A DNA stretch of 64,000 nucleotides from Botryllus schlosseri (taxonomy: Eukaryota): the NCBI GenBank assembly GCA_051294905.1, contig CM119372.1, positions 1,736,001 through 1,800,000 of the forward strand. Direction: 5' to 3'. How positions within the stretch are numbered: position 1 is the first letter of the stretch; every line of letters starts with the position of its first letter. The notes beneath the pieces were generated by a model. The model saw only the letters and a program-made list of their open reading frames with translations. It had not been told where the DNA came from and made no database searches. Position numbers and translations under genes: made by a program. Below, piece after piece: positions 8,724-63,421 of the stretch.

Positions 8724-11700
8724 CTATTGCTTAGACTGCGGCTTGCTGTTGGTGCCCCAATCGTACTGCATGAAAGTGACCTTGTAGTTGCGATCCTGCA
8801 TCAGGCTGGACAGATGACATTTCTTGTTGCAGTTGGCAGGTAGGCAATCGTAAACCCACTGGACAACCTGAAATCGGAGCAAATAAGAATTTATAACGTT
8901 GTGTTGGCCGCGGACTTAAAATTAGACTGATTAGGACGAAATACCGATACCACTATTACAAATTCAAACTTCATGACAGCTGGACAAAAGATCCCCCGTG
9001 GCAACATAATACATTTTTGGAATATTGCACCTATTTGCAGGGTTGTAATGACTCGAGTCATGTCAGTGAGTCTACTCGGGTACGACTTAGTCACGATTTT
9101 CAAATGCGTAAAATGACTCGACTCGACTCAGGTCAATTTCTGTATTGACTTGACTTGTACTCGAGTCATTGCGCACGACTCGAACCAAGTCATATGACTC
9201 GAGACTAGGACAGCCAAGACATACATTTCAGTGTAACTTCGAAGGATAATAAAGTCACCACATGATTGGTATTTCTATTGGTATTTCGTCGTTTAGTCCT
9301 GATACTTGGAAAATAGGCCCAGAAACTGTTAGGACTGAGGAATATTACGATATTATGAATGCGAGTCATTCTATATCACTCGTGCAAAGTTAAGAAAAGT
9401 GGGTTGAACTCAATACTGAACAGTGAACATAATGACTCGGACTCGCCCCTCTACTGACTAAATCACACTTCATTAGGTGGTGAATTGAAAATGAATCGAC
9501 TTGACTCGAGTCAAAACTGCAAAAGTGAGACTTGGTTACCACCGCGGTAACATATGTTAATGAAAGTAGAACATATCATATCAACTCTTTATGAAAGCAC
9601 CTGAGCGTTATCAGCTCCGAAATCGCATTTGTACCAATCCATGATCTTGCTCAGTTTGACAAGTTTCTTGTCCGCGTCAACGCCACAGCCATCTTCTCCT
9701 TCCAAAAACGCCTCTGCCGCACAACGCAGCTGTTCCATTATTCCCTAGGATACGAAACAAGGCTGCTTCAGAGACAGCAGATGATTGTCAAGAGACAATG
9801 CCTACTAATAGGACTCGGCGCGATCCAATGATTCAAGCACTCAGATCTGAATCGAGTATTAATACTAAGAATTCGAATAGAGTAACGAGATATGATCGTT
9901 TCGAGTACTGAAATTACACGCCCCCCGCCAGTAACAGTTAATTTCATCAACAAGTTATAGTTTCGATACTAACTTCCACAGTGGGAGCCTTGAAACCTTG
10001 ATTGGTCATATCGCAACATAGAAAAAACATAATGCAATAGCTAATCTCGTCACTTAAAATGACCTTTCTGTGGAGTTGCGATCAACCCACAGCGTTGACG
10101 CAAAGTGCAATGAAATGGGCGTGGTCGAAATAGTAACAAACTATCGTTAGGTGATGTAGAACTGGCATCGAAAATGTCCTCCATTACTGCATTTCGTCCT
10201 CCTTTACAGCTTTAACAGCTTAGATAATGGACAGAGTGAACAGAAAACCGGCATAAATGACGTCAAATAGATAATGCGGACGTTCGAGCGGATCAGTCGG
10301 GAGTCAAATGAAAGTGATCGACCTTTTTTTTAGTCAACACAACAAGATTTCCAGTAAATATCCGAAAATCAGCTATTTTCAATTTCGGTAAACTAATTTT
10401 TACGGTTTGGTAAAAGTGTCCTCTTTTCCCGATTCCTAAATATGCTAACCCCGGTGATACTCTAATAATAAATCAAATAACTCAAGTACTCGATATTGCC
10501 CAGAGCTACTAGCTACGCAGAGTTGAGGCTTTTAGCAATATAACAAATTGAGCATGAAGAGATCACAACAGAGGTAGAGAGATAGACTGCAATTGTTTTC
10601 ACACTCACGACTCACCGCAACAGAAATGTGATCATTTCCTTTATTATCAACAAGCACGACACATACAGCCGTACATTGACTAATATTCAAACTCACATTG
10701 GCGGAATAGGTCTTTATCGGCGGACAGCTTTTAGCTCCGCACACCAGAGCGAAATGAATCAGAGGCTCGGGTTTTTCTAAAGCGGCACGCATACGTGGGT
10801 CGGACTTGGAGAAAGGTCTGGTCAACATCCCAACACCCTGAAATAGAAGTGTCAGCAGCCAAGAGTTGCTACGCAAAAAGAAATAACGCCGTAAATGTCA
10901 TTTAATCACTAGTACCAATTTCTAAGACATGACAAAACTGCGTCAAGGGGCAAGTAGAATATGAAAGGCCTGAACAAGGGTTGTAATGACTCAACTAGCA
11001 ATTTTTGGCGACTCCACTTGCCTACAAGTAGTATCTTAATTATGGACAGTCAACGTAACAATTTTAGGCAGTAAAATTTTGAAGGAAAAAGTTATTTTTA
11101 ACAACCCTAAAGCGCATCCACGCAGAATGACTCGCAATTCCACGAACACAGATTCGCACTTTTAACGCTATCTTAGTTTCCTACATGTAATAGCTATTAC
11201 TTTTGCGGAAAGCAAGCGAGCATGATAGACGATTTTTATTCATCATAGTCCTGCGTATTGAATTGTTCAAATTTATCGATACCTACTAATTGCACGGTCA
11301 TTAGCAGAGTCATGGAAATGCCGCATATTATAATATCGAATGACTTGCAAATGTTTCGATCCCTTTTCAGAAAACGTTTGCATTTCAATATCTAGTCGAC
11401 AGAATTTGTCACGTCAGCATGCGATATAGATGCTAAATATTGAGTAATTTATTCATGTTGACATAGACCCGGACATTTTCGGTTGACATTCGTCAGCAAC
11501 TAGTAGACAATTGAAAAAAAAACATTGTGCATCAACAATCGCATCACCAAATACGACTCGCCGGCATGAAATTTCAAATAATAGAAGCAAAGAAACAGCA
11601 AATATATATCTGAAAGTGGTCAGCTTCACAATGCCTCTCAAAATGATTACTGTCAAAGTTATAGCAACAGTGCTCACCTTACGGTTCGAGCGTAAGACTC

Positions 11701-14700
11701 CGTTTTCAATGTCTTGCAAAGAGTAGTCATGTCCACCGATGCGATACGACGCAGAGTTGAAAAACTAGGGTAATAAAAGATATATAAATTGGAAGTCACA
11801 TCTTGCATGGTTCGCAAAGTAGCTAGCAGACTTGGATAACTATATAATTCAATCTCAGTTCGGATTTGGAAGAAAACTACGCCGCTATAATTCTAGTCCT
11901 AACCTATTGATATGAACTGAAATTGTTTCAATTATCAAATCCATCAATTATAATTCTACTCTAACTTGGAAAAATAGTAGTTATAATTCTAATTCTAATC
12001 TAATTTAAAAAGCTGAAAATTTTATAGTTATCCAGCTCTGTATGTAGGCAGCTTTAGTCCAAGCGATACTCATCATTTGAGAGGAGATGAATAATTTCAA
12101 CGCGATATACTCACCTTATATCTTTGCCATGTTGTTGTAGGTATTCCTAGCATGACATTGGCATGGATCACGAGAGCGTTATAAATATTGATGAAAAACG
12201 CAAGTTTCTCTTCCCTTGTCATGTCTTCTACCTGAATGGAAGATTGGAAACACTTCAACTCAGCTCAGTAGAGCAATGTCCAGGATCTATGCAAGGCTTC
12301 ATAAATATAGGGCTGGTCACAATGATTGTGTACTCCAATCTGAATAGGGTGTTAATCCTTCTAATGATCCAGTTTGAGTAAAGAGAGATCATCTTTTCGA
12401 ATACTGAAATTACACTCTCCTTGCCACTAAAAGTTAATTTATCAGTGGGAATGACAGTTTCAAAACTTTTTTCGATCATGGAAGCCTTGAAACCTCGATT
12501 GGTCATATCACAGCACACGAGCATGTAGTGCAAATCTACACACGTTAGTGGAAATGACATAGCTGTGAAGTCTTAATCAACACACAACAACAGGGATCAC
12601 ACTCAAAAATTTATTACTGTTATATCGAACAAATTCGGCAGAACTTTTGACACTTACGTTGAGCCTTTGCAATTGCCCTGTCGATTGCACATAGTCGCGA
12701 AACAATTCGCTGTCTTTCATCCCTTTATAATCCACATACTTGCCGTCGGGAGATAGGAACTGACCGTAGAGTTTCAGGATGTGTTTTCTCAATTGTACCG
12801 CGAGTGCCGACGCTACAAAAGAGAAATAATCGTATCAGAAAAGCGCGACATCTTAACCTGCTACTAAACAAAGGCGAAACATCGCTCGAAGTATGATTGA
12901 AAGTCGGATAACTAGAAAATTTACAGCTTTTCCCAAATATATTAGAACTAGAGTTATAACTACACCGTTTTTTTCCAAGGTGGATTAGAATAAGAAAAAC
13001 TGAATTCTAAAAACACTGGGAAATGGAATTAACTTATGAACTAGGCCTACATAGAGCAACAAAAACCAAGTTCAGGTCATACCAAATATGAGCTCATTCT
13101 CATAAGCACGAGGATGGCAAATGCCTGTACTTGTGGGGTCTTCAAAAATGACTTTTTTTCTCAAATCGTACTGGCTACTTGATAAAATTGTTAGGTTACC
13201 TAATTCAAGCCTACACCAAATTTGGTTCAATTCCAACCAGTGGAAGCGGAGTAATTGCCGTCGAAAAATATGGATTTGAATAAAATAGTATTTACGGTGG
13301 GCACCACTATAATAAATACCGGTAATCAAGAATTGGACACCGTAAACACTATTTTATTCATAATCCAAATTTTTCGACGGCAATAACTCCGCTTCCACTG
13401 GTTGGAATTGAACCAAACTTGGTGAACATCGTTTCTATAGACAAGCTAACACGTTCATGGGGTGAACAGAAAATTTTGAAATTTTTGGTTACCGGTATTT
13501 ATTTTTATATAATAAATAGAAACTTTCTTCTCCTGTATCAATGCGGCTACCGGTTGGAATTGAACCAAATTTGGTGTGCAGGCTTAAATTAGGTAACCTA
13601 ACAATTTTATCAAGTAGCCAGTACGATTTGAGAAAAAAAAGTCATTTTTGAACACCCCTACTGAACTGGTACACCAATCGTGGCTCGTTTCGCACTATAC
13701 AGCTCTCCCGTAACATTTAAATTAGAAATTAGATCATAATTAAAATGGGACCATAGAAACATGTCACAAATCAGATTAGAATTACATTACCGGCATTTTG
13801 CACTAAATAGATGATTCCAAGTTAGGTATGATCGAGACTGAAAACCCTCAATGGCCAATTCTACTTATCACTACATCCTACAAATATACACCAGTAGGGT
13901 TTAGCATCAGCAGCGGTTATACCACTCGAATATTCGAGACATACTCAAAATCTATGTGGCTTTAATGATTATGAGCTTGAAAAGTCGTGCTTTTCCCATC
14001 GACCGCATCATACTTATACTTGAAATGAAACAGCCCAGGGCCTGTCTTGAAAGGCACAAAGTTCATTCAAACTTGAGTAAGCACACTAGCCACAACTCTC
14101 AATAATACACAGGCAAACCAAATCACAAAAACAACAAAATATTTCTACGGCGATTCACATAATAATGCATGACTAGTCTACGACGGACAGGCGCATTGAT
14201 ATTGCCAGCAACAAGGGGATATGAAAACAAGTTTACATTACAGCCCAGGTAGAGTTTACATAATTCAATTCAAGTTTGTACCGGCAGTGCTTTGCGTAAA
14301 TCCAGTCCGAAATCCATATTATCGCTCCATTTTTCGACCATAGATAACTAACCTACAGATAGACGGCAAACACATGACACCACCAGCCGCAGACTTGGAA
14401 AACTGGATGTTTCTATTTGTCTAATTACACTAATTAGTGCGAAATGGCTGTAATCTAATTCTAATCTAATTTGTGAAATTTCCACGACTCTCATTTTAAT
14501 TAAAATCTAATTTTTGGTGTCCCTGAAAATGATACAGCAGAACCGTATTCAATTGAATAGCATATTCATATGAAAATAAACCCGGATATTTTCGGCTGAC
14601 ACTCGTCAGGGGTAATCGATTGTTGATATACAATGTTCTTCCCAATTCCCTACTAGTTGCTGACGATTACCCCTGACGAGTGTCAGCCAAAAATATTTGG

Positions 14701-17700
14701 GTTTATTCAAATATGAATATACTATTCAATTGTATATTGAAGTTCTGTACCTCCAAGAAGCTCTTCAAAGATTGGAATTCTAAATTTTGCTGCATTTCTT
14801 CTCAATTCAGAATTTCATTCAATTTCTTGAGTTTTTGCAAATTCAGTAATGGTAATTCCAATCACATTTCCAATAAAAACATATAGCTATAATTTTAATT
14901 TAAATTTAATTTGGTTAAGCTGAAAATTTTCTAGTTCTCCGCCTCCTCTGTGGATTAGTTATCCATAATTCGACCGACCTAAATCGAAGTTACTATTTTG
15001 TGGATCCGAAAATTAGTCCGACTCCATTTACCTGGCATCGGTTTAATGTCCACGACCACCTGAGCGTTAAGCGATTTGGACGGTTCGTCCTCGAGTAAAC
15101 GGTAAAGTGTCTTGTCGTTCTTGAAGGTGTCGTCGCCGTGAACTGCGCTTAGGAATCGCGATTGGAATAAACCGCCCGCAAATTCGGCAGCCTGCTCCTG
15201 TCCTGAAAAGCACAAAAGAGTGTTTAGTACTATTTGGGAATCGGAAATGCAGGGTTGTAACGACTCGAGTCACGATGTTTTGGTGACTCAACTTGACTCG
15301 AGTCATTTTTTCAAATGCTTAAAATGACCAGACTCGAGTCAATTTGCTTATTGACTCGACTTGTACTCGAGTCATTGTGCGGGACTCGAAGCAAGCATTA
15401 TGACTCTAAACTAGGATGGTCAAGACCGACATTTCATCGTAACTTCGAAGAATAGTAAAGTCACCACATGATTAGTACTTCGTATATCTGAACTGATACT
15501 CGGGAAAATAGGGCCAGAAACCGTTAGGACTGAGGAAAATTACGATAGTATGAATGCGTGTCATTCTATATCACTCGAGCAGAGTTGAAATAAGTGGGTT
15601 GAACCGGGCTGAATTCAAAACTGAACAGTGAGCATAATGACTTGGACTCGGACTCGACCCGCAACCAGCTGACTTGGACTTGGACTTGTCTCGGTGGTGA
15701 ATTGAAAATGACTCGACTTGACTCGAGTCAAAACTATAAAAGTGAGATGGATTTGAGACTCGCAGCCTTGTGACGTGGTTACAACCCTGCTGAAATGTAA
15801 AAATATTATAATATACTATGTAGGGTTGCGCACGATAATTGGATTATTCGAATCTAAGTCGGGTATTAATTCTAATGATTTGACTCAAGCGGCGATAGAC
15901 GATTCTTTCTAGCACAATACTGAAATGATACGCTCCTTGCCAGTAGAGTTAATCTATCAATGACATTTATGCGAAGTCGTGATCAACCCACGGCAATGTC
16001 TCAAAGTGCAATGAAATAGGTATGGTCGAAAAAACACCAAAGCATCTTTAATGTGATGTAAAAACTGGCATAATATTCTCAGTTAGCCGCATAAAGGTAC
16101 GAGGGCTGTTCAAAAAAAAAACTTCTCCTTCAGATTTCACTGGCTACTTGATAAAATTGTTATGCTGGTGAAAAAACGCTGCACACCAACTTTGGCTCCA
16201 TTCCAACCACTAGAAGTGAAGTTATTGCAGTAGAAAACTTTCTAATTCAATGATTTTATAATAAATAATTAAAGAGTTGGTCACCGTAAATACTATTTTA
16301 TTCAAATCCAAATTTTTCTACTGCAATATCTTCGCTTCTAGTGGTTGGAATTGAGCCAAATTTGGTGTGCATCATCTCTACTGACAGCCCAACAATTTTA
16401 TGGGGTCGGTAGAAAAATTTTGAAATTTTATTTTTTTGTTTTTAATGATATAAATTCAAAACTTTCTACTGCACGAATCTTGCTTCTACTGGTTGGAATG
16501 GAGCCAAAGTTGGTGTGCAGCGTTTTATCAAACGACCTAAAAATTTGATCAAGTAGCCCGTGAAATCTGAAGGAAAAGTTTTTTTTTAACAGCCCGAAGG
16601 TACATATTTGAACATTCCCTATCATTTATACCGTTTTGAAGTCATGATGAGCGGTACTCGAGTCGAAGCCTCATACTCTACTCGGTATCAAATCGATTTA
16701 GCCACGCTGTGGAAGAAAATGAATGAAAGAAAAACGCTCACCACATCCTTGATGCTGTTGGATCCACGATACCAGCTCACATCCCATAAAGCAACTCTTG
16801 TGCACCACCAACAGATTTCTGTAACAGATTTCGAAAGTCGATCACAAGTTGCAAATATGTATATGTGAATTCAGAATCAAAGTCAATTTCCAAGTTTTTC
16901 GCGAATTCTGTAATTCCAATTCTAATTCTAATCTAATTTGAAAATAATACTGCGTAGCTATCATTCCAATTCCAACCGAATTTGAACAAGCTGAAAATAC
17001 ACTAGTTGTCAAACTCTGCGAGAGACAGCGCCACCATTCATCGGTATTATAAAATACAAGCGAAACAAGAAAACGTTACCGATGGTCTTTCACGACTCCA
17101 CTCCTTTTGAACAAATGAATGAGGCTCGCGTCGTCATCATTTTCCTCGGGAATTTGCGCTACAATCAAGAGATAGCGTCTGTGTGAGTTTCGCATATACC
17201 AAATCCGGTTAAGCAGTATTAGCAAAACCGATAACAGGAATCATTTATTGTGACAGCAAGTGGGAGAATTGGCATTTTGATTTCTTTCTGGTTCTATAGT
17301 CTAGGTTCCAAAGGCGTTGTGGCTGTAACCAAGGCAGTTTCATATTGTTAGTCTGAAGCTGGAGTCTGGAGAAGGAAACGTTCGGAAAATGAGACTAAAT
17401 CGATTCCGAAAAGAAATATGAATACAAAAGACTACTTAGCTACCGGCGACGTTTGGAAAATGATAGAAAATAATGTAGTAGACATCTCTAGCCCAACGAA
17501 TGACGGCATACAATAGGTAGCCTATCCAAAAGGTACGTCGATAATGGAAATCAGGCATAAAAGACGATAGAGATACCTTCTGTTGAAGCGGCATCAACAG
17601 GTGCAGGCACGGGTGGGGCATTTTTCGGAACTGGTCTCGTCTTGATTTCGTCGATAAGTTTCAGAAGATCCTCTTTCGACTGAAAATTTCACATCGATTA

Positions 17701-32619: not shown

Positions 32620-33810
32620 TTACCGTTGCTGATAAGGCATGTTTTGTTGAGGCTGGTTTTGCGCTGGATTCTGATTGTACTGCATGCCTTGATGCGTCTG
32701 CTGGTTGGGATACTGAGGCGGGTAGCTTGAAGGCAGTTGTTGCTGATATGGGACTTGCTGTTGCTCGTGAGGGGCCTGTTGCATCTGATGATTAGGCTGT
32801 GGTGTGTTGTACCCAGTATATCCTGGAGATGCATTTGGAGGAGCAGGACGGCCGTAATATGGCCTTGGCTGGTTTTGAATCATACCTTGATGGGAAGAAA
32901 CAGGGTATTGAGACTGTGGTGGTGGTGGTGCATGTTGGTATGCACCAGGAGGTGGTCCTTGCGAGCCAATTGATGCATTAGGTGGGTATGCATTAGGCTG
33001 TGGACCGTATTGTGCACCCTGCTGTGTCGGTTGCTGATTGGGAAAGGCTGAATTCTGCGGATATGAAGGAGGTTGGCTAAAAGCCTGCGAATAGGATGGG
33101 GTTGACTGTGGGTTTGCTTGAGGGTAAGATGTATTTTGCTCGTTATACTGAGACTGCGGTTGTTGGTATGAAGGCGTTTGATGAGTTGGTAATAACTGCG
33201 GATTTTGAGGAGGATACTGCTGATTTGACGCGGGCGATTGTCTCTGACTCTGGGTCGAATCGACTGGGCTACGTAAAGGCGTTCTTGTTCCTGACGAGTT
33301 CGGTGGCTGATGATACTGAGGGGGGTATGAGTTTGGTTGTGGCGGTGGGTTAAAATTGGGTTTCATTTGCGGTGAGGAACGGTGTGTTTGAGGAGACGCA
33401 TACGGCGCTTGGGGTGTCGGTGGGTTAGAGCCGATACCATTTGACTTAGTGGTGACGACTTGCGGATTGTTAACGCTGACGGGTGCTTCGTTTTGAGGTG
33501 ATTGAAAAGTGGATGCAATATCCGATCTCGGTGGTTTAGGTGAACCTAAACTTCCGGAAACACCTTTCGGTGACGATAACGAAACTTGCGGATTGCCAGT
33601 TTGGTTTGAATCCGCGACCGTGGCGAGCCATACCAAGTTACGGTGCAGTATTTGCTGGTACTGCGCTGATTCTCGAATGTTTCCGCTGCTTTGATTGTCG
33701 ACGATGCACTGGATCAAGTGACCGTTCTCGTCTAGTAGCTTTTGAATGGTTTCTTGCGTGATTTGGCCTTTGTTGCCCCGAACATGTTCGGGAACGAATA
33801 TGCTGGACAT
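32620..33810 (-). CDS. SS18: SS18/SS18L1 (SYT/CREST)-family BAF complex subunit, single coding exon, ~396 aa
   Basis: The ORF from the ATG at 33810 has an SSXT domain (ITQETIQKLLDENGHLIQCIVDNQ...QYQQILHRNLVWLATVADSNQ). A long Q/P/G/Y-rich low-complexity tail follows, ending ...MPYQQR. A ttttcAG acceptor at 33849-33848 lies just upstream, so the track's N-terminal extension to 33990 is probably not coding. Confidence 0.92.
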   Translation of the reverse strand: MSSIFVPEHVRGNKGQITQETIQKLLDENGHLIQCIVDNQSSGNIRESAQYQQILHRNLVWLATVADSNQTGNPQVSLSSPKGVSGSLGSPKPPRSDIASTFQSPQNEAPVSVNNPQVVTTKSNGIGSNPPTPQAPYASPQTHRSSPQMKPNFNPPPQPNSYPPQYHQPPNSSGTRTPLRSPVDSTQSQRQSPASNQQYPPQNPQLLPTHQTPSYQQPQSQYNEQNTSYPQANPQSTPSYSQAFSQPPSYPQNSAFPNQQPTQQGAQYGPQPNAYPPNASIGSQGPPPGAYQHAPPPPQSQYPVSSHQGMIQNQPRPYYGRPAPPNASPGYTGYNTPQPNHQMQQAPHEQQQVPYQQQLPSSYPPQYPNQQTHQGMQYNQNPAQNQPQQNMPYQQR

Positions 33811-34149
33811 TGTAGCCGTTATTACAGGTGATATATAATTATTCAATCTGAAAAATATCAACACTGTAGGACAATGGTGAGCCAAACACAGATAGTTTGG
33901 AACCGGTCTTATATGAAAATGTGGCCAACCTGAGAATGATAGGGCCATGAAGGTACTTGTTCTGCTCGGGTATACAAGATTTGTGAGCAAACATTTCCGA
34001 CTATTAATATTAACAAGACAAAGTTGCGTTTCAATCTAACTGATGGTCACGTATAGCTTCTACGTTCGAAGAACTTGTTGTCAACTTAGACTGACCACAG
34101 ACGTCTCCTTGACTTGATGACTTCAAATTCATGGAATACAAGTTTTGGT

Positions 34150-34590
34150 CAATCGAATAGTATATTCATATTGAAATGAACCCGAATATTTTCGGCTGAC
34201 ACTCGTCAGGGGTAATCATCAGCAACTAGTAGAGAATTCGAAAGAACAGCATATATCAACAATCGTAACACAAAATATGACGTCACCAGCACGAAATGTC
34301 GAATACGAGAGCGTTCCATGTACTATTTTTAGATGATACACAAACTCTTTTTGTTGACACAGCCTTGGCTGGTGTATTTTGATAAAAGTCGACTCCAAGG
34401 CACACAAATGAAAGTGTGAGCGACCCTTTCCGAGTATGCGAAATCTGTCGTCTTGATAATTTTTCGCACAGGCGGGATTATCCAACAAGTGTTTGCCAAT
34501 TGCAGAATTTATGGCCTTTGATTGTTCCGCATCAATCTTGAGCGGATAAGTTAAGGGTGAGCTTTTCACCGAGCGTGTTCTGGTCACAAT
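34150..34590 (-). mobile_element. 5'-truncated Penelope-like retroelement (GIY-YIG endonuclease C-terminus + pLTR-like tail)
   Basis: ORF 34219-34587 contains SAIGKHL...FRILGK...LESTFIKIHQPRLCQQKE, the C-terminal half of a PLE-type GIY-YIG domain. It is followed directly by a hammerhead-bearing tail that recurs elsewhere in the window. Confidence 0.8.
34177..34218 (-). ncRNA. Minimal type I hammerhead ribozyme (Penelope-associated)
   Basis: The minus strand reads ACCC-CUGACGA-GUGUCAGCC-GAAA-AUAU-UC-GGGU. It has stem I ACCC/GGGU, an intact CUGANGA and GAAA core, a G-C closed minimal stem II, a palindromic helix III (AAUAUU) and a UUC cleavage triplet. The predicted cut is between 34184 and 34183. 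Confidence 0.8.
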
Positions 34591-34880
34591 TTGAACTTGA
34601 AGTTTACATCAAATATGATTTATTCCTTGTATAGATGGATAAATACACTATTTATGTATCGATTCAGGAATCTGGCTCGCCAAGTAGTGCTACTTATTTT
34701 CCCACATCACGCCCGCCGACTGATGAAGTTGCCCACCGGCCACCCCAAGTCCCCCAAACTGTGATTTTTTTATATGGCATGCAGACAAAATATACGACAC
34801 CGATTATCGCATTATTACGGGATTGCCAGCCCAGCAGGAGTACGGTAATTTAAATGTCCTAATTTATGATAGTAAAAGCT

Positions 34881-35256
34881 CAGAGTGGAATTGGTGGCAA
34901 ACGTCACGCGCAACTTTTCATTTAATTCTTTAATTATTCTATGGAAGAAACCCTTCTGTCACGCGCAACTTATTGACGAAAACAACCACTGATTCCAGTC
35001 TGGGTAAAAGCCAGATTTGACTAAAACACTTCTTCGACGTTGTAGGTTGATGATAAACGACTCCTAAGTAATTGATTTTGTAGTTCGAAGACAAGATGTC
35101 TCGGGCCCAGACTGGAAACAGTGGTTGTTTTCCCCAATAAGATGCATGTGACAGGAAGGTTTCTCGCATAGAACAATTAGGTAATTAAATGGAAAGTTGC
35201 GCGTGACGATGGGGTCGATGTCTCGATGCCAATGCCATGCCACCAATTCCACCCTG
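34881..35256. mobile_element. MITE
   Basis: TIR CAGAGTGGAATTGGTGGCA / TGCCACCAATTCCACCCTG, with internal inverted GTCACGCGCAACTT motifs. Confidence 0.7.
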
Positions 35257-35801
35257 GTCTTGGGCTGAAGTGTCGGCACTCGACACTTCTTTGATACAAA
35301 CACTGGCCTAACCCTTGGTTATAAGTTTACGGGTTATAAACATGATATTCCACACACCAAAGTGAGGGTTAGTTATTAGATTACGTGATTGGATAAAAGC
35401 CATAAAAGGGCTATTGTTTGTAAATTCTCTGATTGTGCAAGCGAACGGGGACAGTTCCATGCTACTGTCTAAAACAGTACGGTATCCATCCACATGCATT
35501 TCAGACTACATATGTATCAGAAAATAGGGCATGCTCGATGATCGAAAATATCCCGTACCGAGCCCGAAATTGCAGCTAAACTGACCCAAGCACCGAATAC
35601 CGTATTCAATGCTATAGCGATCTGACTCCGTACATTGAATATATCTGTCGTGAAATACAAGTTCCGTCATAATGGTCTTAAACAACGAACGACTAAGCTT
35701 TCTATCAATTGTCAAAATCCGACAAACCTGTCCCGTATTCCATATTGCTAGCGTATAGGTTATGCTGATTATCCTCCAACATTGACAGCAACTACGATTA
35801 C

Positions 35802-35900
35802 CAAATGTTTCTGCACAAACAGAAAATGGCGCCGACACCTAGCGCCACCTTACGACACACTGGTGATCCGACATTACCGCAGTAAGCGGATGACGTCAAC
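35802..35900 (-). promoter_or_regulatory. Candidate SS18 promoter / non-coding first exon
   Basis: YY1-type AAAATGGCG (35823-35831), palindromic CRE TGACGTCA (35891-35898) and a minus-strand donor TTG|GTAATC at 35802. Confidence 0.4.
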
Positions 35901-38063
35901 TCGCAGTTCGTTTATGCGAATTTTGGCATTTTTTGAGTCGTTTAGTGTCATCATTCAACTTTAAGCATGTTGGGACTCTTTTGGCACCTCGCTTTTCTTC
36001 AAAAATGGCAATAAAAACCTTGTTTTCAGCGCTTCAGCGCTCCAGCGCTTTCCGCGGCCGGATCGGACCAAAGACATGATCGGTAACACCGGTAACCATG
36101 CCTTCCCTGCTTACTGGGATAGCATGGAGGGGTGGTGCAAGACTTAGAAAGCCGTACAAGGCTATATCTGCACCTTCCTTGTCCAACGGCATGATCTCAT
36201 GGTATGCGTATGCACAGATCGTGTGTATGTCTACCATGAGTCGGTGTAGCCTATATGCCGCAGAAACATCAAGGACAAAAATAAACTACGTCCTTACCTT
36301 TCCTATGGTTTCTAACTATAGATGCAAATGCCTATTAGTATATAGCCTATACAGTAGGGTTTTCCACATATAACTTTCCTTCTGGATCCCGGAGATTCAC
36401 TGATTAAATTGTTAGGTTGCAGTAATAACGATGACCAATTCCAACCAGTATACGCCGACGCCTATTGTAATTTTTGAATTTATTATAAAGTATTTTTAAA
36501 AAAGTCAAATTTTACTGTCAACCCCATAAAATTGTTTAGATGTCTACAGAAACGTTGCGAAACAAGTTTTACACAATTGCAATTGCAGCGAAGTTATTTG
36601 AGTTTTTCATTCAAAATTCTGGTATTTTCCACTGTCATCGATGCTATTTTTGCAAATCCAAAACTTTCAACTGCAATTATTTCGCTTCTATGGGTTCAAC
36701 TGCAATAATTTCTCTTCTATTGTAAATTCGTCGGCGTAGGCTATATTGGTTGGAATTGAGAAAAATGTGGTATAGGCTACATGTAGCGTTTTATTAGGCA
36801 ACCTAACAATTTAATCAGTGAATCCCCATAGGATCAGGTAAAAAGAAGTTATTTTTGAACAACCATATTATACAGCTTTTATATAAGCAGGGTCATTCCA
36901 TGCCTGCACCAACACCAGTGATATCTATCCATTGTGATATCCATTTTCCGGCATCTTTCCTAATGTCCTTTTTAACTAACATTTGTTCCAGCCAGACTGT
37001 GTAGAGAGCAACGAGTGTACCTGTTTGGTGCGGGTGTGATCAGACTAGTTGACCTCCAAGGTCGTATCGATCATTCCTGTCTGATACCGAATACTGTGCA
37101 ACGTGCATGCATAATTTTTGAAGCACCATTATTGCTGTCTAAGTATTTCGGATGGATGAAAATACTCCCTTTCTTTTACGATTTTTGAAATAACTACATA
37201 GGCCGCTACTTATTTTCTGATCTTAGATTTTTGTCGAAGTAGAGGAGTCGCCTACCTTTGAGGCTTGCATCAATTTTATGGGTGAAATCGTCATAACTGG
37301 ACAAAATATAGTCTTTGTATCACGGAATCTGAATACATTTTCCAAAATATTTATATCGTCTGTAGTATCCACGCTTAATACGTTTCTGTAGATTGCTGGT
37401 TAACAAGATCGACTTTACGCCAACAGAGCGTTGAAAGAACAGAACCATTGAACCATTGAAACTTTCATACAAACGAAAGCGTATACGCAGTTGGAAATGC
37501 GAGGTTTCGCCTTCAGAAGTGTCATTGTATTGTTCGGTCGAAACGCAACAGCGTGTTGTTTCTTGAAAATGAGCTACAATAATACTAGAGATAGAATCAA
37601 TAGTTTGATAATGACCGGGGTTCAAATCGAACCTAACCTCTGGGTATACGCCACTGCGCACGACGTGCCACCTCAATAGTCACAAGTTGACTATGGATCT
37701 GGCAACCAATGATGGTCAAGTCGGGCGTGCCATCAAAATTCATCTATATGAGTTGAGCGTTGTTTGACCTCCAACAGAACACCCTCAGCCTGGCTCAGGA
37801 AACCTCGGTTAAGGATCGCTGATCCAAAGTAATGTTCCAGTAGGCTACTCCGCAAAAATCGTCTCACGACTGTCGAATCACTACAGCTATTATTAACCTA
37901 CTGGACTCGGATTCGCAATCGAATCAATGTCCTATTTATAATGCTACACCTTAGGGTTGAAATCTGACAGTCTTCGCGTTGTACAATTTTGTCCCTCCAT
38001 ATTTATTCTGTCCGCAAGCACGCTGAATGTGCGTAAAACCAAAACCATATAGCCTTCGTGTTA

Positions 38064-44100: not shown

Positions 44101-47100
44101 CCAGTGGTTCTTAAACTTTTTTATACACGCCCCCTTTATGATACTGAGAAATCACGCTCCCCCTTACCGTCATATCACAAAATGCAACCAGAATGCTAGC
44201 GATCTCAACGGATAATTTGATGGCATGGAAGGTTATGATTGTTAATTGATGAGAGAATTCTATTATATGAATTCCGGACTATACACAAAAAATTTTTCAG
44301 TTGACCACAGCTCCGCGCCCCCTTAAGATGCTTTCACGCCCACAAGAGGAGCGCGCCCCCCAGTTTGAGAACCACTGCCCTATGCCGTTTTCCAAACGTT
44401 CCGGTCTTGGCAGTGTCTGGGCCATTGCACGTCAAGGCAATAGGTCCAGTTCATTCATATCAGTTGGTTATTCTCCCTCGACGGAATGATGTTGACATCG
44501 CCGAAGCCAAAGCTAGTGACGAAAAAATGATGTTGGGCACCGGAGGATAACTATGTGTTGAAACTGTAGTCAATTTCAGCATTTCAAAATGGTGTTCTTA
44601 TCTGTATTCCGAAATTTCAAATCAAGTCGCGGGCCGCAAAATATGACCTCGCGGGCCGCGTGTTGGTGACCCCTGGTACACATGCACTGTGTCACATTAA
44701 TATAGGCTATCACTTCATTGAAAGATAGGATTGGAATTAGCAATATGACGTCACGTGACGTCATGAGGTTCACGTTCGCGTTCACACAGAACCTTTCAAA
44801 AAGGTTCGCGTTCACACGAACCTGAACCTTTCAGAGGTTCACACCATCCCTACTGTTAAGTGCGAAATGTGCTCAGCTTGGCATACAGACATTTGCCATT
44901 CCCATGGTCAATGTTCCCTCTAATTATTGACGAGTCTGCGCGCACTCACCTCAACTCACTACGCGATCCCCTGCACAACAGTGCATAACACTTCGGATTT
45001 TTTGAGCGCAGCTCAGATTTTCTATGCGCAGAGACTGTGTCATCACTGCGCAATTGTGCACGTGCGCAGCTTAGAGGGAGCATTGCTCATGGTTATGAGC
45101 ATGACCTCTGATTTAACGTGCACTAAACGAGAATTTCCCTGTTGCGTTTCTTTCCACTACGGAATGAAATTCAATTTTTCAAGTTTTACGAATTCGGTAA
45201 TTTGGTCCAATTGTGCACTGAAGTGTCACGCGCGTCGTGCGAACAAAGCTATTTCGATATCTTTAAATCGATCAGGCAAGATATTGCAATATTTTATACC
45301 AGAAATCAGTAGTAATTATCAAAATGTTTTTGATCGCGGCTCATTAGTGCAGGAATTGAAGTTAGAAATATAGTTCTGCACGTGGTCAACGGTGTACGCA
45401 GTAACGCACGGTTCATTTTTATGGAATGTAATGTAACATACTGCTAACGGAAAAACGGGGAGCCCTGGTCTAGATTTCAAGCCGGAGTCGAAATGTGTAT
45501 AGTGTGATGTATAGTACACCTGAAATTTATGTGCGCCTGAGTCTCTGGGTTGACAATAATTTCAGCTACGTTTTACTGCTCATTTATACATACCATTTCA
45601 TCGGGATGTTTATCGAGTTTAGTCTTGATGCTCATATGTATCACATCACCAGGACGAAATACCGCGTGGTCGGCGAACTGAAAAAGCGGAGGACACGCAA
45701 CGCTTGGGCAAAATCGAAGGTTTCGGCAAAGAGCGATTTCCGGATGGAAGACTTCGCTGCCGAAACTTGTAGTGTCGAACGGAGACCTGAAAAATATATC
45801 ATCGTCTTCATTTTATTATTATTTTTATCAAATCATTACACCACAAGATTGCGATATAATGAACAGATAGGAATAGGTGTCGTCGTTTAATTAGCATGCA
45901 AATAAGAGGCGACGAAAATGGATGCTGCAGGTGTCGGTGAGCGAGGTCGATATGTCAGATTGCGGTTCGGTAGTCTTGAGAGCTGGTATTCATACATTGT
46001 AAGAATTGCTTTGTATTTCGATTTGAAAATATAGAGCATCTTATGGTTGATATTTTCGATCAAATAACATAACTGTAAAAATCACATACGGGCTGAATTA
46101 GTGTTGCGCTGAGGAATCGTCGATATGAAGAGCACAAAGCACTTCCACTCCTTCGTATTACTCCAGTGTGGTTCGCCTACTTGCACGATACTTACTGAAG
46201 TACGAATGGTTATGATTTAAGGCTAATTCCACATTTGATGAAAACTACTCATGTCTGCTTTACAAAAGCCACCAAAGTGTCGAATGTAAGTTTCTAGGTT
46301 GATTTGCATCACTTTTGTGAGAGAAATTGTCATTTCTACTTTACCAAATAACCACTTTGTGATGATGGTGGAATATTTTTTCGAGAACCGCCCTATTTGT
46401 AGTGTCTTCTGTCATTTTGCGTTGTCGCGAAGAAAAATTTTGCAATTGCAAAAGTAACCTACCTTCTAATACTTACGCAGAATACAATTAACCGCCCATT
46501 TCCCATTTCCAGACTTCCAAGTAGATTAGGTATATCTATGGTTACTTCTACTTGTAGCCAAGTAGAAATATGTGGTCCTCTTTCTACTTTAGGATTGCCT
46601 ACTATTTTGATTACATCCGGCAACACATTAAATTCATAAAATTGCATAATATCTTCATGTTGGAATAAACCCGAATAGATACGGCTGACACTCGTCAGGG
46701 GTAATCTTCAGTTTGAGAATCGGAAAGAATATTGTTTACAATTTATTTGAGTTATTTCAATAAGAAAATTAAATTGTTTATTGAAATTCCGCACCTCCCA
46801 GAAGCTCTTCAAATACATGAAGTATATGCCCTTTCTGTAATTAGCAGAAGTTATATAGAAAGTTGGCATATACGTCGCATCTTTTGCGAAAATTCGCTCA
46901 CTTTCGTTCGCTCGACATTGTTTCTCCCGAGTCATCTCCGTATACGCATTTGAAATCCCCGTAATGTTTCAAAGTCCCGGCCACCGTCTTGTATTGAATC
47001 GAGTTTGCATATACCACGCCATATTCGAACAAGGTGATTTTAGTTCCGCAATCCCCAGCCAAGCGGGTGCGAAAGTATCGCTTCCGAAAATCAACTGCGG

Positions 47101-50100
47101 ATTGATAAAGATGAGATTTATTTGCGAAGTAAAAAGACTGATGTAAGTGCTGTAGCGCCGGGTTTACGATATCGTAGGCCTCAGTACTACAAATGCAAGC
47201 AGTGCAGTTCGGGTTGCATAAATTCAACACGAGCTTGTTCCAATATCACTTCTCCTACCTGTTTATCATGCGCTCGTCCGCTGCCATCTTACATATGGAA
47301 TAACAGTGTGGGGCTGCTCTTACAAGAAGCATATCAACAAGCTCCAGGTATTACAAAACAAAGCCATTAGGATTATATCTAATATACCTGCACGTAGTAG
47401 TGTCAGTCCTGAATTTAGAAAATTGGGCATTCTCAAGGTCTCAGATTTGTATGAATTTGAAATTGTAAAAATCATGAAACAATATAATGAAAGAACATTA
47501 CCTGACTATTTCGACAACTTTTTTCAATGCCCCAATTCAATTCACCATTATAACACAAGATTCTCACAAAATCAGTCCCTATTTGTTAAATTGAATTCAT
47601 CAAGACTGTCAAGAAATTCCCTATCTCATATAGGTGTGAAATTTTGGAACAACGTACCAACTATCTACCGTACTCTGCCTTATCATACATTTAAAGCTCG
47701 CTATTGCAAATTTATATTATCCAAGTACTAAGAAGAACATATCTCATGACCACAGTGATGTTGTTTGTTGTTTTGTTTCATTTTATATGTTACAATAATA
47801 TTACCACTGTGTACATGGGTCAAATTGTCTGATCACACTGTTAACTATGATAACCGTCCTTCGCTAGTGTTGCTGTCTTTTATTTACTTTTGTTTATTCC
47901 GTTACTCTTTGCGGTGCTACTCGACTGAGAGAAGAAATTGATTCATAGTATTATTAATACTGCCAATATGCTTGGGTGACTCCGGCCTAGAAGACTTCGG
48001 TCATATCGGGTCTCCCAGTCTATACCATGTAAAATATAGTAGGAGAAAATGTATACTATTGGACGTGAATTGTTTGTGGACATTGCCTTTACTATATTTC
48101 ATGGTTGACGAATAAAAGAATTCTCTCTTCTCTCTCATGTTCAAAACATGGCCCCCGTTTGAAACATGTTTTTTTTCCGTTTCTTCAACAATGACGTCAC
48201 TAATCTTTAATTGCGACGTCACGGGGATTGATATTGACAATTGAAACTATAGGATATAATGGCTCCTTCGAAGAAAAGGCTTCCGACCTCTGTCATAAAC
48301 AGCCAAAAATATCTTTAACCGGGACATACATCGTTTTGCAGCATTTTTACGGTTGGCGGTCATCATCATGAAAACACCCATTTCGTACCAATCATCTCTA
48401 TCAACGTCCCAAAGCTGTTGAACCGACGACGATTTCGACGGTTTCAGTCACTACACATCTTATATACGTGGACAATATATTGGGTACAAATCGTCCGTAG
48501 GCTCATACTGCATCTTGTCTTTTCGACAATATTCTCCCAATTTAAAAAAAAAAACGATTTAAATGCAACCCCAAGTGTAGTCCATGAATACAAGTTGTAG
48601 TGACCTTAGGATGAAAGCATAGATAGACGAATCTGCTTGATAACTATCTAGGTTTTTATTACCTGGGAGATTCGACTACAATCAACTATACAAGGAAACA
48701 AGACGCACACTTCCAAGCACAAACATGGACAATGTGCATCTGAGCGGCACGAACGAACTCCACAGAACGAAGAAACCAATACACCAATAAACTGCGATTG
48801 TGGCTACGTGCGAAGAACGACAGAACGTTTGCATGACGGCGTGAAAGAGAATGTCGTTCTAGATATATTATAGCAAGCGCATCACGCTCAGAGAACAAAG
48901 GTCTCCCTTGATTTACCTCCTGAAGCAGAGACTTGGATAGCTATAGCTGTCGAATTGGAGGGTAATCTAATTTCAATCAATTTTTTTCGAATGTTTCTTT
49001 CTGATCCGTGTTTCTTTCTGATCCGTATCTAGTTAGTTAAGAAAGTTTTTGATGTCCTCATTTTAATTCTAATCCGATTTCCTGAAAATGCGACAGGATA
49101 ACTGAATAGTGCGAAACGATCCAAGCTTGATGTACATTTGGCATGAGACCGGACTTGATTTGATACGAACTAAACTTGATTAAATTTCCAAGTTTTCGTG
49201 AATTCAGTAACTTAAATTTCAATCTAGTTTGGAAAGAAGGGATAGCTATAATTGTAATTTTAGAAAAATTTCATTCTAATTCAGTGAAGCTGAAATTTTT
49301 CTAACTGTTCAACTCTGCCCTGAAGCTTAAATCGGAACACGAAACGGATACGAATTCTGCCATTGGCAAACTTTTAATAGACAGCCTAAACGAAAGATTT
49401 CGCGTCGTCAGGAGACGCCGTTCCTTTTTTCCATAAATGCGTTGAAGTCGACTTCCATCAAAATCCGCCAACCTAGTTTGTGACAACAAACAGTTCGTGT
49501 AATCTCACAAATTAGATTACGGGCATTTGACTCAAGTCATTAACCGGCCCGTAAGTCGAAAAACAAGCAATTACGACTATAGACAGTCAGCCCTCAAGAT
49601 TCCCTGACCACAATCTGACATCTCGACCTCGCCTACCGGACACATGCCGTATTATTTTTCATCGCTTCCTTTTATGCTACCCTTTCTTAAAATCCAATGT
49701 GCATGCCGCTTGACAATATGCTCTCTAGGCCAAGGCGCGTGTTTGATTAAAATACTACTCCAATTCGTTTCGGCAATCAATCAGTTTTTTCATCGTTTCA
49801 GAACACCACAAAATGCGATACAATGAAAAGATAGGAAGGTGCCCTCCTATCTCTTCCCTATATCGCAGTCTTGTCGTGTTTTGAGTTGATAAATATATTT
49901 AATGGAATGATCATGATGTTGGTTTTTGAAGTAGTCATGGTGTTTGTAGGCTACTTGTCATTTACACCAGGCCGATATTATTCAGTTCTATTCCGTAACT
50001 GCCGACTTCTAGCACGCCCCACTTCTAGGCTTGAATGAAGGCCTAGCTAGAATGATCATGACGATATGCGCAACATAGCGAAAAAGTTCAGGAGATTCAA

Positions 50101-58880: not shown

Positions 58881-60364
58881 GGAGATTTGGCACTATAGTA
58901 TGGATACCTAATGGTAGGCGGTGACGTGACGCCCCTCCACCTTGGCTGTCGCGACATTTCTACAAAAATAGTTGGGAAAAGCAGAAGTTAGAACAAGTTA
59001 GTACCGGACACATTTAGTCAGAGGATATTGCTTTGATTTTGGGGTCGGGGACATTATCTGTTTTGATTTCCAATCGTAGAGTATGGTAACAATGACTTGG
59101 GTGCAGTGCGGGCACGCGGCACGCCATTCACGCACACCTGGTCGACTTCGACAACTAGACAATTCGATTTGTCCGAATAGACGAATTAGAACGAAATGCC
59201 GGTAATCTAATTCTATTGTGATTTGTTTCTCTGATCTAATTTTATTTCCTAACTGATTTCTGTTTTCTCTGAAACTGGTATACTGGGTTGCTGGGAAACT
59301 GTTGGCCTATATGCGCAACTAGCCAAGCTTGCTTATGATAATGAGCTCTGATCTGATATGAAATGAACTTCATTTCCTAATTCGGAAATTAATTTAATGC
59401 CCGGATTTTTGCGAGTTCAGTGATCCTAATCCTTTAATATAATTAAAAAACTGTATGAAAATGCTGGATATTTTCCAGTTTAGAATATTTGATTTGTATC
59501 GTGAGACTGAACAATTTCAACAAAGCTTTCTGATGATATGTATTACTAGTTTACAATCCTGTAAACATCAGAAGATATCTTGTGCCAAGGCTTCACAAAC
59601 TACGGCCGCGACCTCCGAAGGGGTCGTGTAAAGAATCTCTAATTCAATACCGTATGTTTATTTCAACACAAAATATTACCATACTTTGACACTTTGATCG
59701 TTTAATTTCGATAACTTTAAATCACTGAATATTATAAGTAATAAATAGCCTGTAATAAGGGCTGGCTATAATTGATTACCATCGTAAGAGTAGATGTGAT
59801 GTGTAAAGTTCATATACCTATCTTCTATACCAGTGGTTCCCAAACTTGTGATGTCGGAGCCACATTTCAAATATCAATGTTTGTATGGGCCGCATACATC
59901 GCTAATCTGCGCCTATCAATGCCAAGATAAACCGATATAGAATCTATAGAAGTCTATGTGAATGCAGAGACGAAACAGAAAGGTCTATGACCAGCAGAAC
60001 TCGAGATATATCATTGTCTGACGGGTATTCATCTATGCGTTTGACGATAGTCTGCAGGAATTCTATTATCCCGTTTTCAGAAGCGGCCTTGGACGGCTTT
60101 AAACACAACTAGTATCCCTCATTTTAGCATTCATATACGGAAATTGACTATACGTATTCATAGAAACAAACAACTGTCGTATACTATATTTTGTGGCATA
60201 TTTAGGGGTCAATCAGAGCCCCAAGAAGGCTACCTTGTAGCCGCGGTAAATTATATTGCTTTCATTTTGTTCCACTTCTGGTAGGCAATATAACATTATT
60301 TATTCATAGGCAATGCTTACCTGAAAATATTCCCGTTTTCAACTACAACCGACGTTACTTCGCC

Positions 60365-62851
60365 ATGTCTGCAACCCAAGAAAACGTCAATGAAAATGCA
60401 ATGAAAGAGGGATCAACCACAAACAGAGAAAGGAAAAAAGACCTGATGTCCGTCATTGCAGCCTTATCTGCGGACACATCAAATTCACCAACTTCGTCAG
60501 AAATGAAAGAACCTTCTCCATCCATTTCATTGGTCGACACTGAAATCCTCCCTGCAGTCACTAATAGTGACAGCCCCATTCAGACTCCTATTTCTCAAAA
60601 TGATCTAGACACCAGCAATTCCGACCAAAGTGGCGACGTAATGACTAATATCATCCACCTACTATATCAGGCTGCGTCTGGTAAACCAATGGTAAACAAC
60701 GCACTTGGAAATGACGAAACAATTTTGAACATGCATCGACCTCTGCAAGGGCAGAAAGAAGCTTTAAAGCAGTTGATGACGTCGTACGCAAATGGCACCG
60801 ATCAAGTGCGCAGGATTCTGTCGAGCGAAGTTAATATCATCTACGAATGTAAGCGTTGTCGTGGAATGTTCAGGTCTTTGCCGAACATAATTCGACACAA
60901 GCAAGATTATTGTACAAACGAAGGCTTGATGTCGTCTGTTCTCAACCGAGCTGCTAATAGTTCGAGAGAAGATGATGAGGCCTTTCAAAGAATACTTAAC
61001 ATCCTCCATCCTCCTGAACCAGAGCCTACTGTTGTATCTTTTGATGAACCGACTCAGTCTAATCAAACAACGCCTGAGTCTAGTCGTAAGTCTGTCGCGG
61101 CTATTCCTACCATGATTAAGCCCGTGATAACACAACGTTTTCCTGTTGAAATGGCCAGAGTCGTGACTACATCTTCATCTGTCATAAATCCCGTTCCGAA
61201 AGTGCGAGATTCCCCGTCAATGTCGCACTTAGGCAAGTTTTTTGTGGGCAAATCTAAATCTGGTGGTCACGAAATCGCAAAACCGTATTCCTGCCCTACG
61301 TGCAGGAAAAGGTTTGTAGAGAAGAAAAGTGTGAAGCGCCATTTGATAACGATACATGGCATGAGTGTAGTTGATGCGTATAAAGCCATGAACACTGCAG
61401 AAAACGCAGTATCTAAAGCTTTAGTGCCTATTTCATGCGCCACAACTAGTTCTCCATTTCAATCACGCAGCGGGCGTACTAGATCGCGACGTTCTGAGCC
61501 AAGCGATAACTTACTAAGTCAATGCGTGGAAGAAATTAACCTCGGCCCGAGCAGAAGGATTCACGTTCTCCCCCAAGAGTTTATTTTGAGCTCCGTGCAG
61601 TGTCCCGTATGCCACCAGGGTTTGTGCAGGAGGACGAACGTCCGCAGGCATTTGTTAGAGGCACACAATCTGATTATCAAAGGCGAAAAGAAATACTTCC
61701 AGCTGAAAGACATAGCCAGAAACACTACCTCAAACAGCCCGACTTTGAGAAGGTTACGACACCTGTTCACTGTGACCAACAGGAGCCCGACTTTGTCTGA
61801 AGAGCGAGCCAATTCTTTATCGCAACAAGCCAACTCTGCGAACGCAAGTCTTACGTCCTCGATGCAATCTGGTAGCGCGTCAGACACCGATGCAGATCAG
61901 AATCCGAACGGAACCAATATGTCAGGGCATGCTTTGAAATTGGAAAAAGTGCAGTTTGTAGAATCGGGCGCTACCAACTTATCAGCTAGTGAACAGATGC
62001 ATGAGCTATCCGTCAATGGCCCTACCGCTGATGATGTCGGTCATGTAAATGAAAATGCTGACACTGATAAAAACAGCGTGGACAGTGGCAAGAAATCGTC
62101 TCAAGACTTGAATCAAGAAACGCTGCATGAAGACGACAATGCAGAGGAGCCGCCTCCTAAAAAATTGAGGCAATTAGCGCCGATGGTGACCAGAACTGGA
62201 CGTACCGTGACTTCATTCAACGGAAAAGTGATTACAGGCACTAAGCAAGTGACTGGTAGCGGAAATTTACAAAAAATCACTCTGTCGCAAGTCACCTCGT
62301 TGAAAAGTAACGACAGAAACGGGACCGGGGTCAAAAATTTGATTATTCGCAGGATATCTTCGGACTCAACCACCGTGCCTACTACCACATCAAGTAACGG
62401 GCGTACTTTCATCAAAGTCGAGCTGCGTAATTCGCCGAGAGTGCAGCAACACGATTCCAAATCTATCTCTTCAAAAGCGACTGCTGAATACGACATCGGA
62501 AAGCTAAAGTGTTTCACATGCAATAAAAAATTCGCGACCCCCCCGGATATTAGAAGGCATCTTATCACGGTGCATTCGTTTACAACCGAAGAAGCTCTAG
62601 CCACGTGTTACGATTCTTCTAGCGTCGATTCAGCGGCGCAAGTAGCCGGGTTGAAACACGGTTTTGACATCACAAACGCAAAGTGCATGATTTGCAAGAG
62701 GTTTTACTTCTCGAGAGAGAATCTCTTAAGGCACTTGTCGAGGACGCATCATATGGAGCCGGATATACTGAAGGATTTGAAAGTGTCGTGTGGTTTGTTG
62801 ACGTTGGTTGATGTAGAGAAGGCTGACTCTAAGCACGACGTCAAGTCAAAG
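60365..62851 (+). CDS. ZNF800: ZNF800-like C2H2 zinc-finger protein, large first coding exon
   Basis: LKQLMTSYANGTDQVRRILSSEVNIIYECKRCRGMFRSLPNIIRHKQDYC resembles the conserved N-terminal C2HC block of ZNF800. Four further dispersed C2H2 fingers follow (CPTC..HLITIH, CPVC..HLLEAH, CFTC..HLITVH, CMIC..HLSRTH). A phase-0 donor AAG|GTAGCT at 62851 precedes the ORF-track stop at 62875. Confidence 0.85.
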
Positions 62852-63421
62852 GTAGCTATCAAATCATTTTGTTAATTACAAAATTTCTTCATTTTGGTCC
62901 CTGAACATATGACCGTACCGAAAGCGTGCAATATATAGGTAATTAAACATGTGCGTAATCAACAGAAAAAATGATGAGATAAGAGGAAACAGTAATCACC
63001 ACAATTAGCATGCAAAACTTGAACATTATTGGAGCATGTTAGGGTTTGGGTTAAATTAGGGCTAAGATCAGATTAGGATTAAGATCAGGGTAAGGTTTAA
63101 ACTTCTCACTCTCCCCTAGCTGTAAGTGTCGGCTTGATCAAGCCACTTTTTCGTTTCTTATAAGATGCCTTCATTTTACGCGTAATTTGAAGGGGCTTTT
63201 TGTGGTAGAGAACTTCAATTTACAATCGAGTAATATATTCATATTGAAACATGTTTCAACATCAATGTTTTTTAAAATTTTATTTTTCCGTTATGCTCAA
63301 AAACTTCTCACTCTATGAGATAAAATGTGTCTGCATACCAGACTGCCATCTACTCTAATATCAAGACTGAATTGTTGTTCATGTTGAGCTCCTTGTAAGG
63401 TGTATTCTTTATTCATTTCAG

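Follow-up and report, generated by a model that had tools for sequence, protein, structure and literature searches.

A minus-strand motif resembling a minimal hammerhead ribozyme lies a few hundred nucleotides upstream of an SS18-family gene in Botryllus schlosseri, within the 64-kb window analyzed here (the whole stretch of 64,000 nucleotides). What kind of hammerhead is this, which element carries it, and does it act on SS18? An earlier note had placed it in the tail of a Penelope-like fragment and, should SS18 start near 35.8 kb, in the SS18 pre-mRNA.

The Penelope-like insertion and its family

The motif belongs to a 429-bp, 5′-truncated insertion of Penelope/Poseidon type (34152..34580, minus strand), consisting of an endonuclease C-terminus and a partial 3′ pseudo-LTR. 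The target-site duplication TGACCA flanks it on the same strand, with the upstream copy at 34581..34586 and the downstream copy at 34146..34151, the first TG of the latter being common to the element end. An RNA contig of the family (X1 record 6) matches 34386–34581 with four differences and diverges beyond 34581, and loose ends of family reads run on past 34150. Together with the flanking TGACCA, this match, the departure at 34581 and the reads past 34150 delimit the truncated copy, whose insertion is judged recent from its identity to the family RNA contig (about 98%) and the intact 6-bp target duplication.

Its open reading frame supplies 87 endonuclease C-terminal residues (34318..34578, minus strand), the GIY-YIG motif itself having been removed by truncation. 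In tblastn searches the frame matched residues 150–236 of homologue P0001 at 86% (E 8.8e-49) and the C-terminus of P0124 at 54%, and also aligned with P0006 and P0054; the search for relatives yielded 1136 at E up to 0.001. A Pfam scan of the window frame returned no match, hence no recognizable GIY-YIG domain on its own. Among six relatives scanned, P0124 contained a reverse transcriptase (RVT_1, E 1.9e-8), P0006 a GIY-YIG domain above the cut-off and P0054 one below it, and the remaining three gave nothing. The earlier description of a GIY-YIG C-terminal frame therefore holds by homology, which assigns it to the last 87 residues of a Penelope-like endonuclease, but not as a domain recognized in the frame alone.

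The reverse transcriptase is absent from the truncated window copy and present upstream, as RVT_1, in the homologue P0124. A CX2-5CxxC finger in the linker separates Neptune and Nematis from Penelope and Poseidon elements according to PMC8557442. By eye, no such finger occurs in the linker between reverse transcriptase and endonuclease of P0001, P0002 and P0124, and its absence in these homologues points to the Penelope/Poseidon type. The homologues' frame stops at 34318, 109 nt before C3 of the hammerhead core, and the window copy reads through to 34219; the statement that the motif comes directly after the frame is thus accurate for the read-through frame only, not for the homologues' stop.

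Five motif copies of this family occur in the window, and only the one at 34213–34180 is core-intact, the other four being broken in the core, a stem or both. Two copies joined head to head (14549..14790) carry motifs at 14613–14580 (minus), where U16.1 is changed and the strand upstream of stem I is cut off, and at 14669–14702 (plus), where G12 is changed. A further copy (46638..46830, minus; motif 46702–46669) has a broken GAAA and an inverted tail piece upstream, and an old copy (11439..11580, minus; motif 11500–11467) lacks 13 nt between two CTGA repeats, with the consequent loss of stem I and of the pseudoknot described below. Sense copies of the family 12.5 kb upstream and 19.6 kb downstream of the intact motif are among those broken, so the motif lacks an intact cis partner.

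The family is clearly very abundant in the genome. Summed depth in the DNA run X15 reaches 3.06 million in the motif bin compared with 35–82 in single-copy DNA (depth here is not a copy number), 77–99% of mapped RNA reads continue into other loci, and family RNA is abundant, with a 2.8:1 sense bias in X21. At 34201, 347 X21 reads with a loose end come from another copy in which a different loop of four bases replaces the catalytic box; retaining the CUGAC/GUCAG hairpin, it is an inactive variant with high expression.

Remnants of a related Penelope-like endonuclease, older and degraded, lie at 48685–48855 and 49438–49501 on the plus strand (tblastn E 5e-4; blastn 77%). The 46.7-kb Penelope copy is adjoined by a 169-aa frame (47222–47731, plus) that we take to resemble the C-terminus of a CR1/L2-type LINE ORF2, and an 889-aa frame with several C2H2-type zinc-finger-like motifs occupies 60206–62875 (plus).

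The hammerhead motif and its predicted pseudoknot

On direct reading of the minus strand, every segment of 34213–34180 matches the motif as first described. The 5′ strand of stem I, ACCC (34213–34210), is followed by the catalytic box CUGACGA (C3–A9, 34209–34203) and by a spacer, G-UGUCAGC-C (34202–34194), that forms a one-pair stem II (G10.1–C11.1) with a 7-nt loop. The next stretch (34193–34185) comprises GAAA (34193–34190) and the palindrome AAUAUU with its A15.1–U16.1 pair (AUAU at 34189–34186). UC (34185–34184, C17 being 34184) then leads into the 3′ strand of stem I, GGGU (34183–34180). Hammerhead numbering places the predicted cleavage site at 34184/34183, and the palindrome bears out the suggestion of a dimer-type helix III, from which cleavage as a dimer is predicted by analogy. 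A type III or a non-circular permutation was excluded, the block order C-G-S being that of an ordinary type I hammerhead (permutation types as compared in PMC10085705). The idea of a deletion product of a normal hammerhead with long helix II was dropped because relatives share the 9-nt spacer.

A loose core pattern matched twice in the window against 1.32 matches expected, which is chance level. The full descriptor (4-bp stem I, G10.1–C11.1, palindrome and UH) had 34213–34180 as its sole match in the window and none in 400 simulated 64-kb sequences (first-order Markov); the motif is beyond chance. An Rfam scan with E up to 10 reported no hammerhead family for the window motif or for five related loci. 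Of the checks proposed earlier, the descriptor proved specific, whereas the covariance models of known hammerheads gave no match. The identification of 34213–34180 as a type I hammerhead motif in a Penelope-like tail is supported. As for RNA, no joint is among the 15 listed of 214 from the mapping, no molecule ends are listed at 34183/34184, and reads at the motif derive from other copies and hence are uninformative on cleavage.

For a comparison of relatives, the best 80 were taken from 481 confirmed metagenome loci, together with two genome-collection loci; this set contained 61 motif rows. Besides the window's own, these rows form four families from other hosts: L001, a large family typified by L010, a group comprising L002, L003, L048 and L054, and the pair L081 and L086. 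All four share the 9-nt spacer and the post-ORF architecture, and the flanks of the window family align with no relative's flanks. In viral contigs the exact pattern had no match and the protein no confirmed one; the degenerate-pattern matches L083 and L084 were discarded as unrelated coding-like DNA without stems, and L082 as a spurious 14-aa match without the motif. L081 (G001:C438) and L086 (G001:C127) are animal Penelope-like sequence on short contigs of a bacterial metagenome-assembled genome, that is, host contamination.

In each family, loop II ends in six bases that are complementary to a six-base strand upstream of stem I. The window strand, GCUGAU (34218–34223, minus), is predicted to pair with GUCAGC of loop II, closing with a terminal U.G that is C-G in other copies; by family, the pairs are GCUGAC/GUCAGC, UCUGAC/GUCAGA and UCCGAC/GUCGGA. 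A Watson–Crick partner at 6/6 positions would arise in the upstream range with a chance of 0.2–0.3% per family, and 6/6 pairing with G.U allowed is kept in 48 of the 61 rows. The spacing of the strand tracks stem I length (offsets 7–11), leaving a linker of 0–5 nt to stem I. Pseudoknot cells were paired in 94.8% of cases in 11 chosen rows, compared with 16–41% in slid controls, and in two pairs both bases had changed (G-C/U-A and U-A/C-G), bearing in mind that the rows are related, that these double changes amount to about two independent events among five families, that four pseudoknot pairs never vary and that the structure was drawn from the same sequences that tested the pairing.

The whole structure was 99% paired in seven chosen rows with equal helix III length, a value that none of 500 shuffles equaled, and this alignment holds five doubly changed pairs, stem I accounting for three and the palindrome, which reads AAGCUU in L001, L010 and L081, for one. 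Covariation in stem I, whose absence had been named as grounds for refutation, is thus present, with three of its four pairs changing on both sides across families.

The second CUGAUGA reported 13 nt upstream of the core does begin there, at 34222, but its reading as a second, or the true, catalytic box was rejected. Neither a stem I nor a helix II can be drawn around it, and in L003, L048 and L081 the upstream strand is no longer CUGANGA yet still pairs with loop II. It corresponds instead to the predicted 5′ strand of the pseudoknot, whose pairing is kept in these three box-less families. Our structural model is that helix II is replaced by a 6-bp pseudoknot, conserved in related elements, that completes the 1-bp stem II.

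Conservation of the core across families is partial. CUGANGA, GAAA and UH, with G10.1–C11.1, are all present in the window motif, and G5, G12–A14, G10.1–C11.1 and A15.1–U16.1 hold across families, whereas positions 3, 6 and 8 drift. In the large family, 31 of 54 rows have U3.G8 and 19 have C3-G8, L001 (1310–1316) has a compensatory U3–A8 pair, and position 6 is U in both L081 and L086 (genome G001) and G in L048 and L054. The strict core is found in only 20 of the 61 motif rows. Drift of the catalytic box while the stems hold weakens the claim that cleavage is selected.

RNA start, folding and the SS18 neighborhood

A degenerate TATA-like box, TATATGC (34249..34255, minus), stands 32 nt before the pseudoknot strand and is predicted to be a pseudo-LTR promoter; each of the two window copies examined has a one-mismatch TATA word at −32. 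Exact TATAWA occurs 30–35 nt before the strand in L001, L010, L003, L048 and L081 (shuffle chance 0.6–2.2% each), and in the large family 40 of 46 rows have it at such spacing. From this placement in related families, the motif likely begins the element's own RNA, and the usual TATA-to-start spacing would put the start near 34227, 2–4 nt before the pseudoknot strand. The CpG profile of the window singles out no promoter. Our literature search returned no account of TATA placement for Penelope pseudoknot hammerheads; Drosophila Penelope is described as having a TATA-less internal promoter and a 3′ pseudo-LTR that can drive downstream genes (PMC2377424).

When folded without pseudoknots, the RNA pairs its catalytic box with loop II (CUGAC/GUCAG, P 0.99), and a G12–C17 hairpin forms a second competing inactive fold. 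The palindrome duplex is worth −0.2 kcal/mol in the window copy compared with −4.3 in relatives, and the pseudoknot duplex −7.6 kcal/mol (terminal U.G at 34218) compared with −9.8 in the 14669 copy (C-G); ViennaRNA does not fold pseudoknots, so the balance between folds is rough.

In the mechanism that we propose, the TATA promoter of the pseudo-LTR would start the RNA just ahead of the pseudoknot strand, which would pair with loop II, stack on G10.1–C11.1 in place of helix II and, through its short linker, hold stem I parallel. The same 5′ strand may serve as an anti-inhibitor, freeing the catalytic box from the CUGAC/GUCAG hairpin. Two copies, as in tandem pseudo-LTRs, would pair through the palindrome and so form helix III; cleavage after H17 would then take a capped leader of some 45 nt off the RNA or release unit-length RNA from tandem transcripts. 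Cleavage of the window copy would be slow or absent, given the lack of a cis partner, the weak AU palindrome, the U.G pseudoknot end and the two inactive hairpins, and the copy may sit in an SS18 intron or outron that is discarded regardless.

The SS18/CREST-family gene (32620..33848, minus) has a probable acceptor at 33848, an ATG at 33810 and a single open frame of 396 aa; Pfam SSXT (E 1.5e-27) supports its identity, and its best homologues are ascidian proteins. The acceptor AG is one of six pyrimidine-rich candidates and agrees with the end of spliced-RNA coverage (33819–33859). In the sample used for RNA coverage, about 6% of X23 and 3% of X21, four X23 reads lie over 33817–33819 and none at 33839, and two X21 reads lie over 33842 and none at 33859. 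The coding region (32620–33810, minus) is uninterrupted; vertebrate SS18 genes have many coding exons, and the gene here was possibly retroposed or lost its introns in this lineage.

The motif is sense to SS18 and 332 nt from the probable acceptor, in agreement with the roughly 330 nt first estimated. The proposed SS18 start near 35.8 kb fared less well: X23 depth is 0 over 35315–35917, compared with about 3–14 over SS18, although such a start would escape notice if the first exon were very short or the RNA trans-spliced, and ascidians have spliced-leader trans-splicing (PMC3074122). Three X21 reads, sense to SS18, fall at single-copy 34051 between the element and the acceptor and lend slight support to unspliced RNA, from an upstream promoter or from the element. 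Between SS18 and the 35.8-kb region lies a MITE-like element of about 300 bp (34902–35208) with 103-nt inverted arms (85% complementary); it recurs in the genome, with an X15 depth of about 22,000. A high-copy, highly transcribed short repeat occupies 36111–36250, with depths of about 1,500 in X23 and about 480,000 in X15.

We consider it probable that the locus is a truncated Penelope/Poseidon tail whose predicted fold, with a 1-bp stem II and a 6-bp pseudoknot, would require a dimer for cleavage, and that it is likely a passenger whose influence on SS18 is small. The same fold could be real and serve as a non-catalytic 5′ structure, in recognition by an element protein, RNA stability or template switching, with the box as a decaying remnant. 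In three related families, stem I and the pseudoknot indeed persist as the box drifts, the strict core survives in a minority of rows, the motif sits at the predicted 5′ end of the RNA, and functions other than cleavage are left open by Cervera and de la Peña (PMC4209133). We regard this reading as unlikely, however, since the compensatory U3–A8 of L001 is known from Penelope hammerheads (PMC4209133), the remaining core positions G5, G12–A14, G10.1–C11.1 and A15.1–U16.1 and the palindrome are kept across families, and many of the fetched rows are dead copies. The upstream complementarity might also be a historical by-product, dating from an old event that internally duplicated or rearranged the box together with helix II; the motif would then be a minimal hammerhead that has degenerated and has a stunted stem II, and no pseudoknot would form. 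The resemblance of the upstream strand to the catalytic box in three families, the 13-nt deletion between the two CTGA repeats of the 11500 copy and the small number of independent covariation events would fit such a history, to which we give a very small chance in view of the double changes at two positions, the tracking of stem I length, the pairing kept in L003, L048 and L081 after box likeness was lost, and an exact structural precedent in the PK hammerhead (PMC11300833).

The model of the earlier note, in which the motif is active in an SS18 intron or outron, or at the 5′ end of an SS18 transcript started by the element, so that its cleavage tunes SS18, is in our judgment very unlikely. 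It draws on the sense orientation at 332 nt before the acceptor, on this being the only core-intact copy of the five in the window, on the three reads at 34051, on a CRE-like word at 35898, a YY1-like word at 35830 and a TATAAA at 34774, on abundant, mostly sense family RNA that implies partners in trans, and on the ability of Penelope 3′ pseudo-LTRs to drive downstream genes (PMC2377424). But the youth of the insertion accounts for the intact core, the cis partner is missing, the palindrome is weak and the competing hairpins are inactive, X23 has no reads at 35.3–35.9 kb, and the window contains the CRE word 11 times. Moreover, the cell discards introns and outrons, and splicing went ahead despite slow hammerheads in introns (PMC2995048). 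A stronger form, in which the solo pseudo-LTR is a captured SS18 promoter or outron switch, with RNA from about 34227 pairing sister transcripts through the palindrome and decapping itself, would make SS18 output fall when the retroelement family is active; we hold it to be extremely improbable. Cleavage within SS18 pre-mRNA is thus unlikely and the link of the motif to SS18 weak, and its position beside the gene is probably an accident of recent insertion.

Comparison with known hammerheads

A very small stem II had been presented as a known Penelope trait, a statement that the published forms contradict. The minimal hammerheads of Penelope-like elements are described as having a longer than usual helix II (Cervera and de la Peña 2014, PMC4209133); in the supplement of that study, helix II is a hairpin of at least three pairs (3–8 bp) in every one of the 56 examples listed, and all but two have an extra base between A9 and G10.1. 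The window motif resembles them in being type I, in its pseudo-LTR position after a GIY-YIG frame, in the short covarying stem I and palindromic positions 15–16, and in the prevalence of solo truncated copies, inverted pairs, the U3–A8 variant and presumed dimers. Unlike the forms described there, it has a one-pair stem II, no extra base between 9 and 10.1, and a 5′ strand predicted to pair with loop II. For Penelope hammerheads, a helix III between two copies has been proposed and weakly shown, with low activity (PMC4209133, PMC6765202).

The PK hammerhead 8YDC (Zhan 2024, PMC11300833) offers a closer structural parallel, with a single G10.1–C11.1 pair, a 6-bp pseudoknot formed by a strand 5′ of stem I and a non-canonical cap pair at the far end of the pseudoknot; in its crystal structure, the pseudoknot stacks in place of helix II. 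Unlike this form (RAGATH-1 type), the window motif is without a helix IV hairpin, an A-rich triplex linker or a stable intramolecular helix III, lies in a eukaryotic retroelement and has no Rfam match. Pseudoknots are reported in all three hammerhead types, and a natural hammerhead with a 1-bp stem II and a 6-bp pseudoknot cleaves at over 1.2 per min (Perreault 2011, PMC3088659); that example is type II, competent as a monomer and from a metagenome, whereas the window motif belongs to type I and its helix III is of the dimer type. Short-stem-III variants linked to Penelope (Lünse, Weinberg and Breaker 2017) cleave as dimers according to a review (PMC6765202), and share the Penelope link and the dimer-type design with the present motif.

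Our literature search found no description of a pseudoknotted Penelope hammerhead, although the 2017 study may contain such a form. The RNA is predicted, on the structural model, to join a pseudoknot-type replacement of helix II with the palindromic, dimer-type helix III of Penelope elements. Lünse et al. in 2017 are said to have noted that pairing between the bases before stem I and loop II is common in hammerheads.

Descriptors for Penelope hammerheads demand a hairpin helix II, so the pseudoknotted form, which occurs across at least five families of elements in different hosts, escapes them as well as Rfam. The conserved TATA spacing makes a concrete prediction of where the element's RNA would start and of the piece that would be cut off. 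Bacterial and phage examples of the pseudoknot design are fast and Penelope hammerheads slow in vitro, which makes the pseudoknotted form a good test case for real cleavage by Penelope hammerheads.
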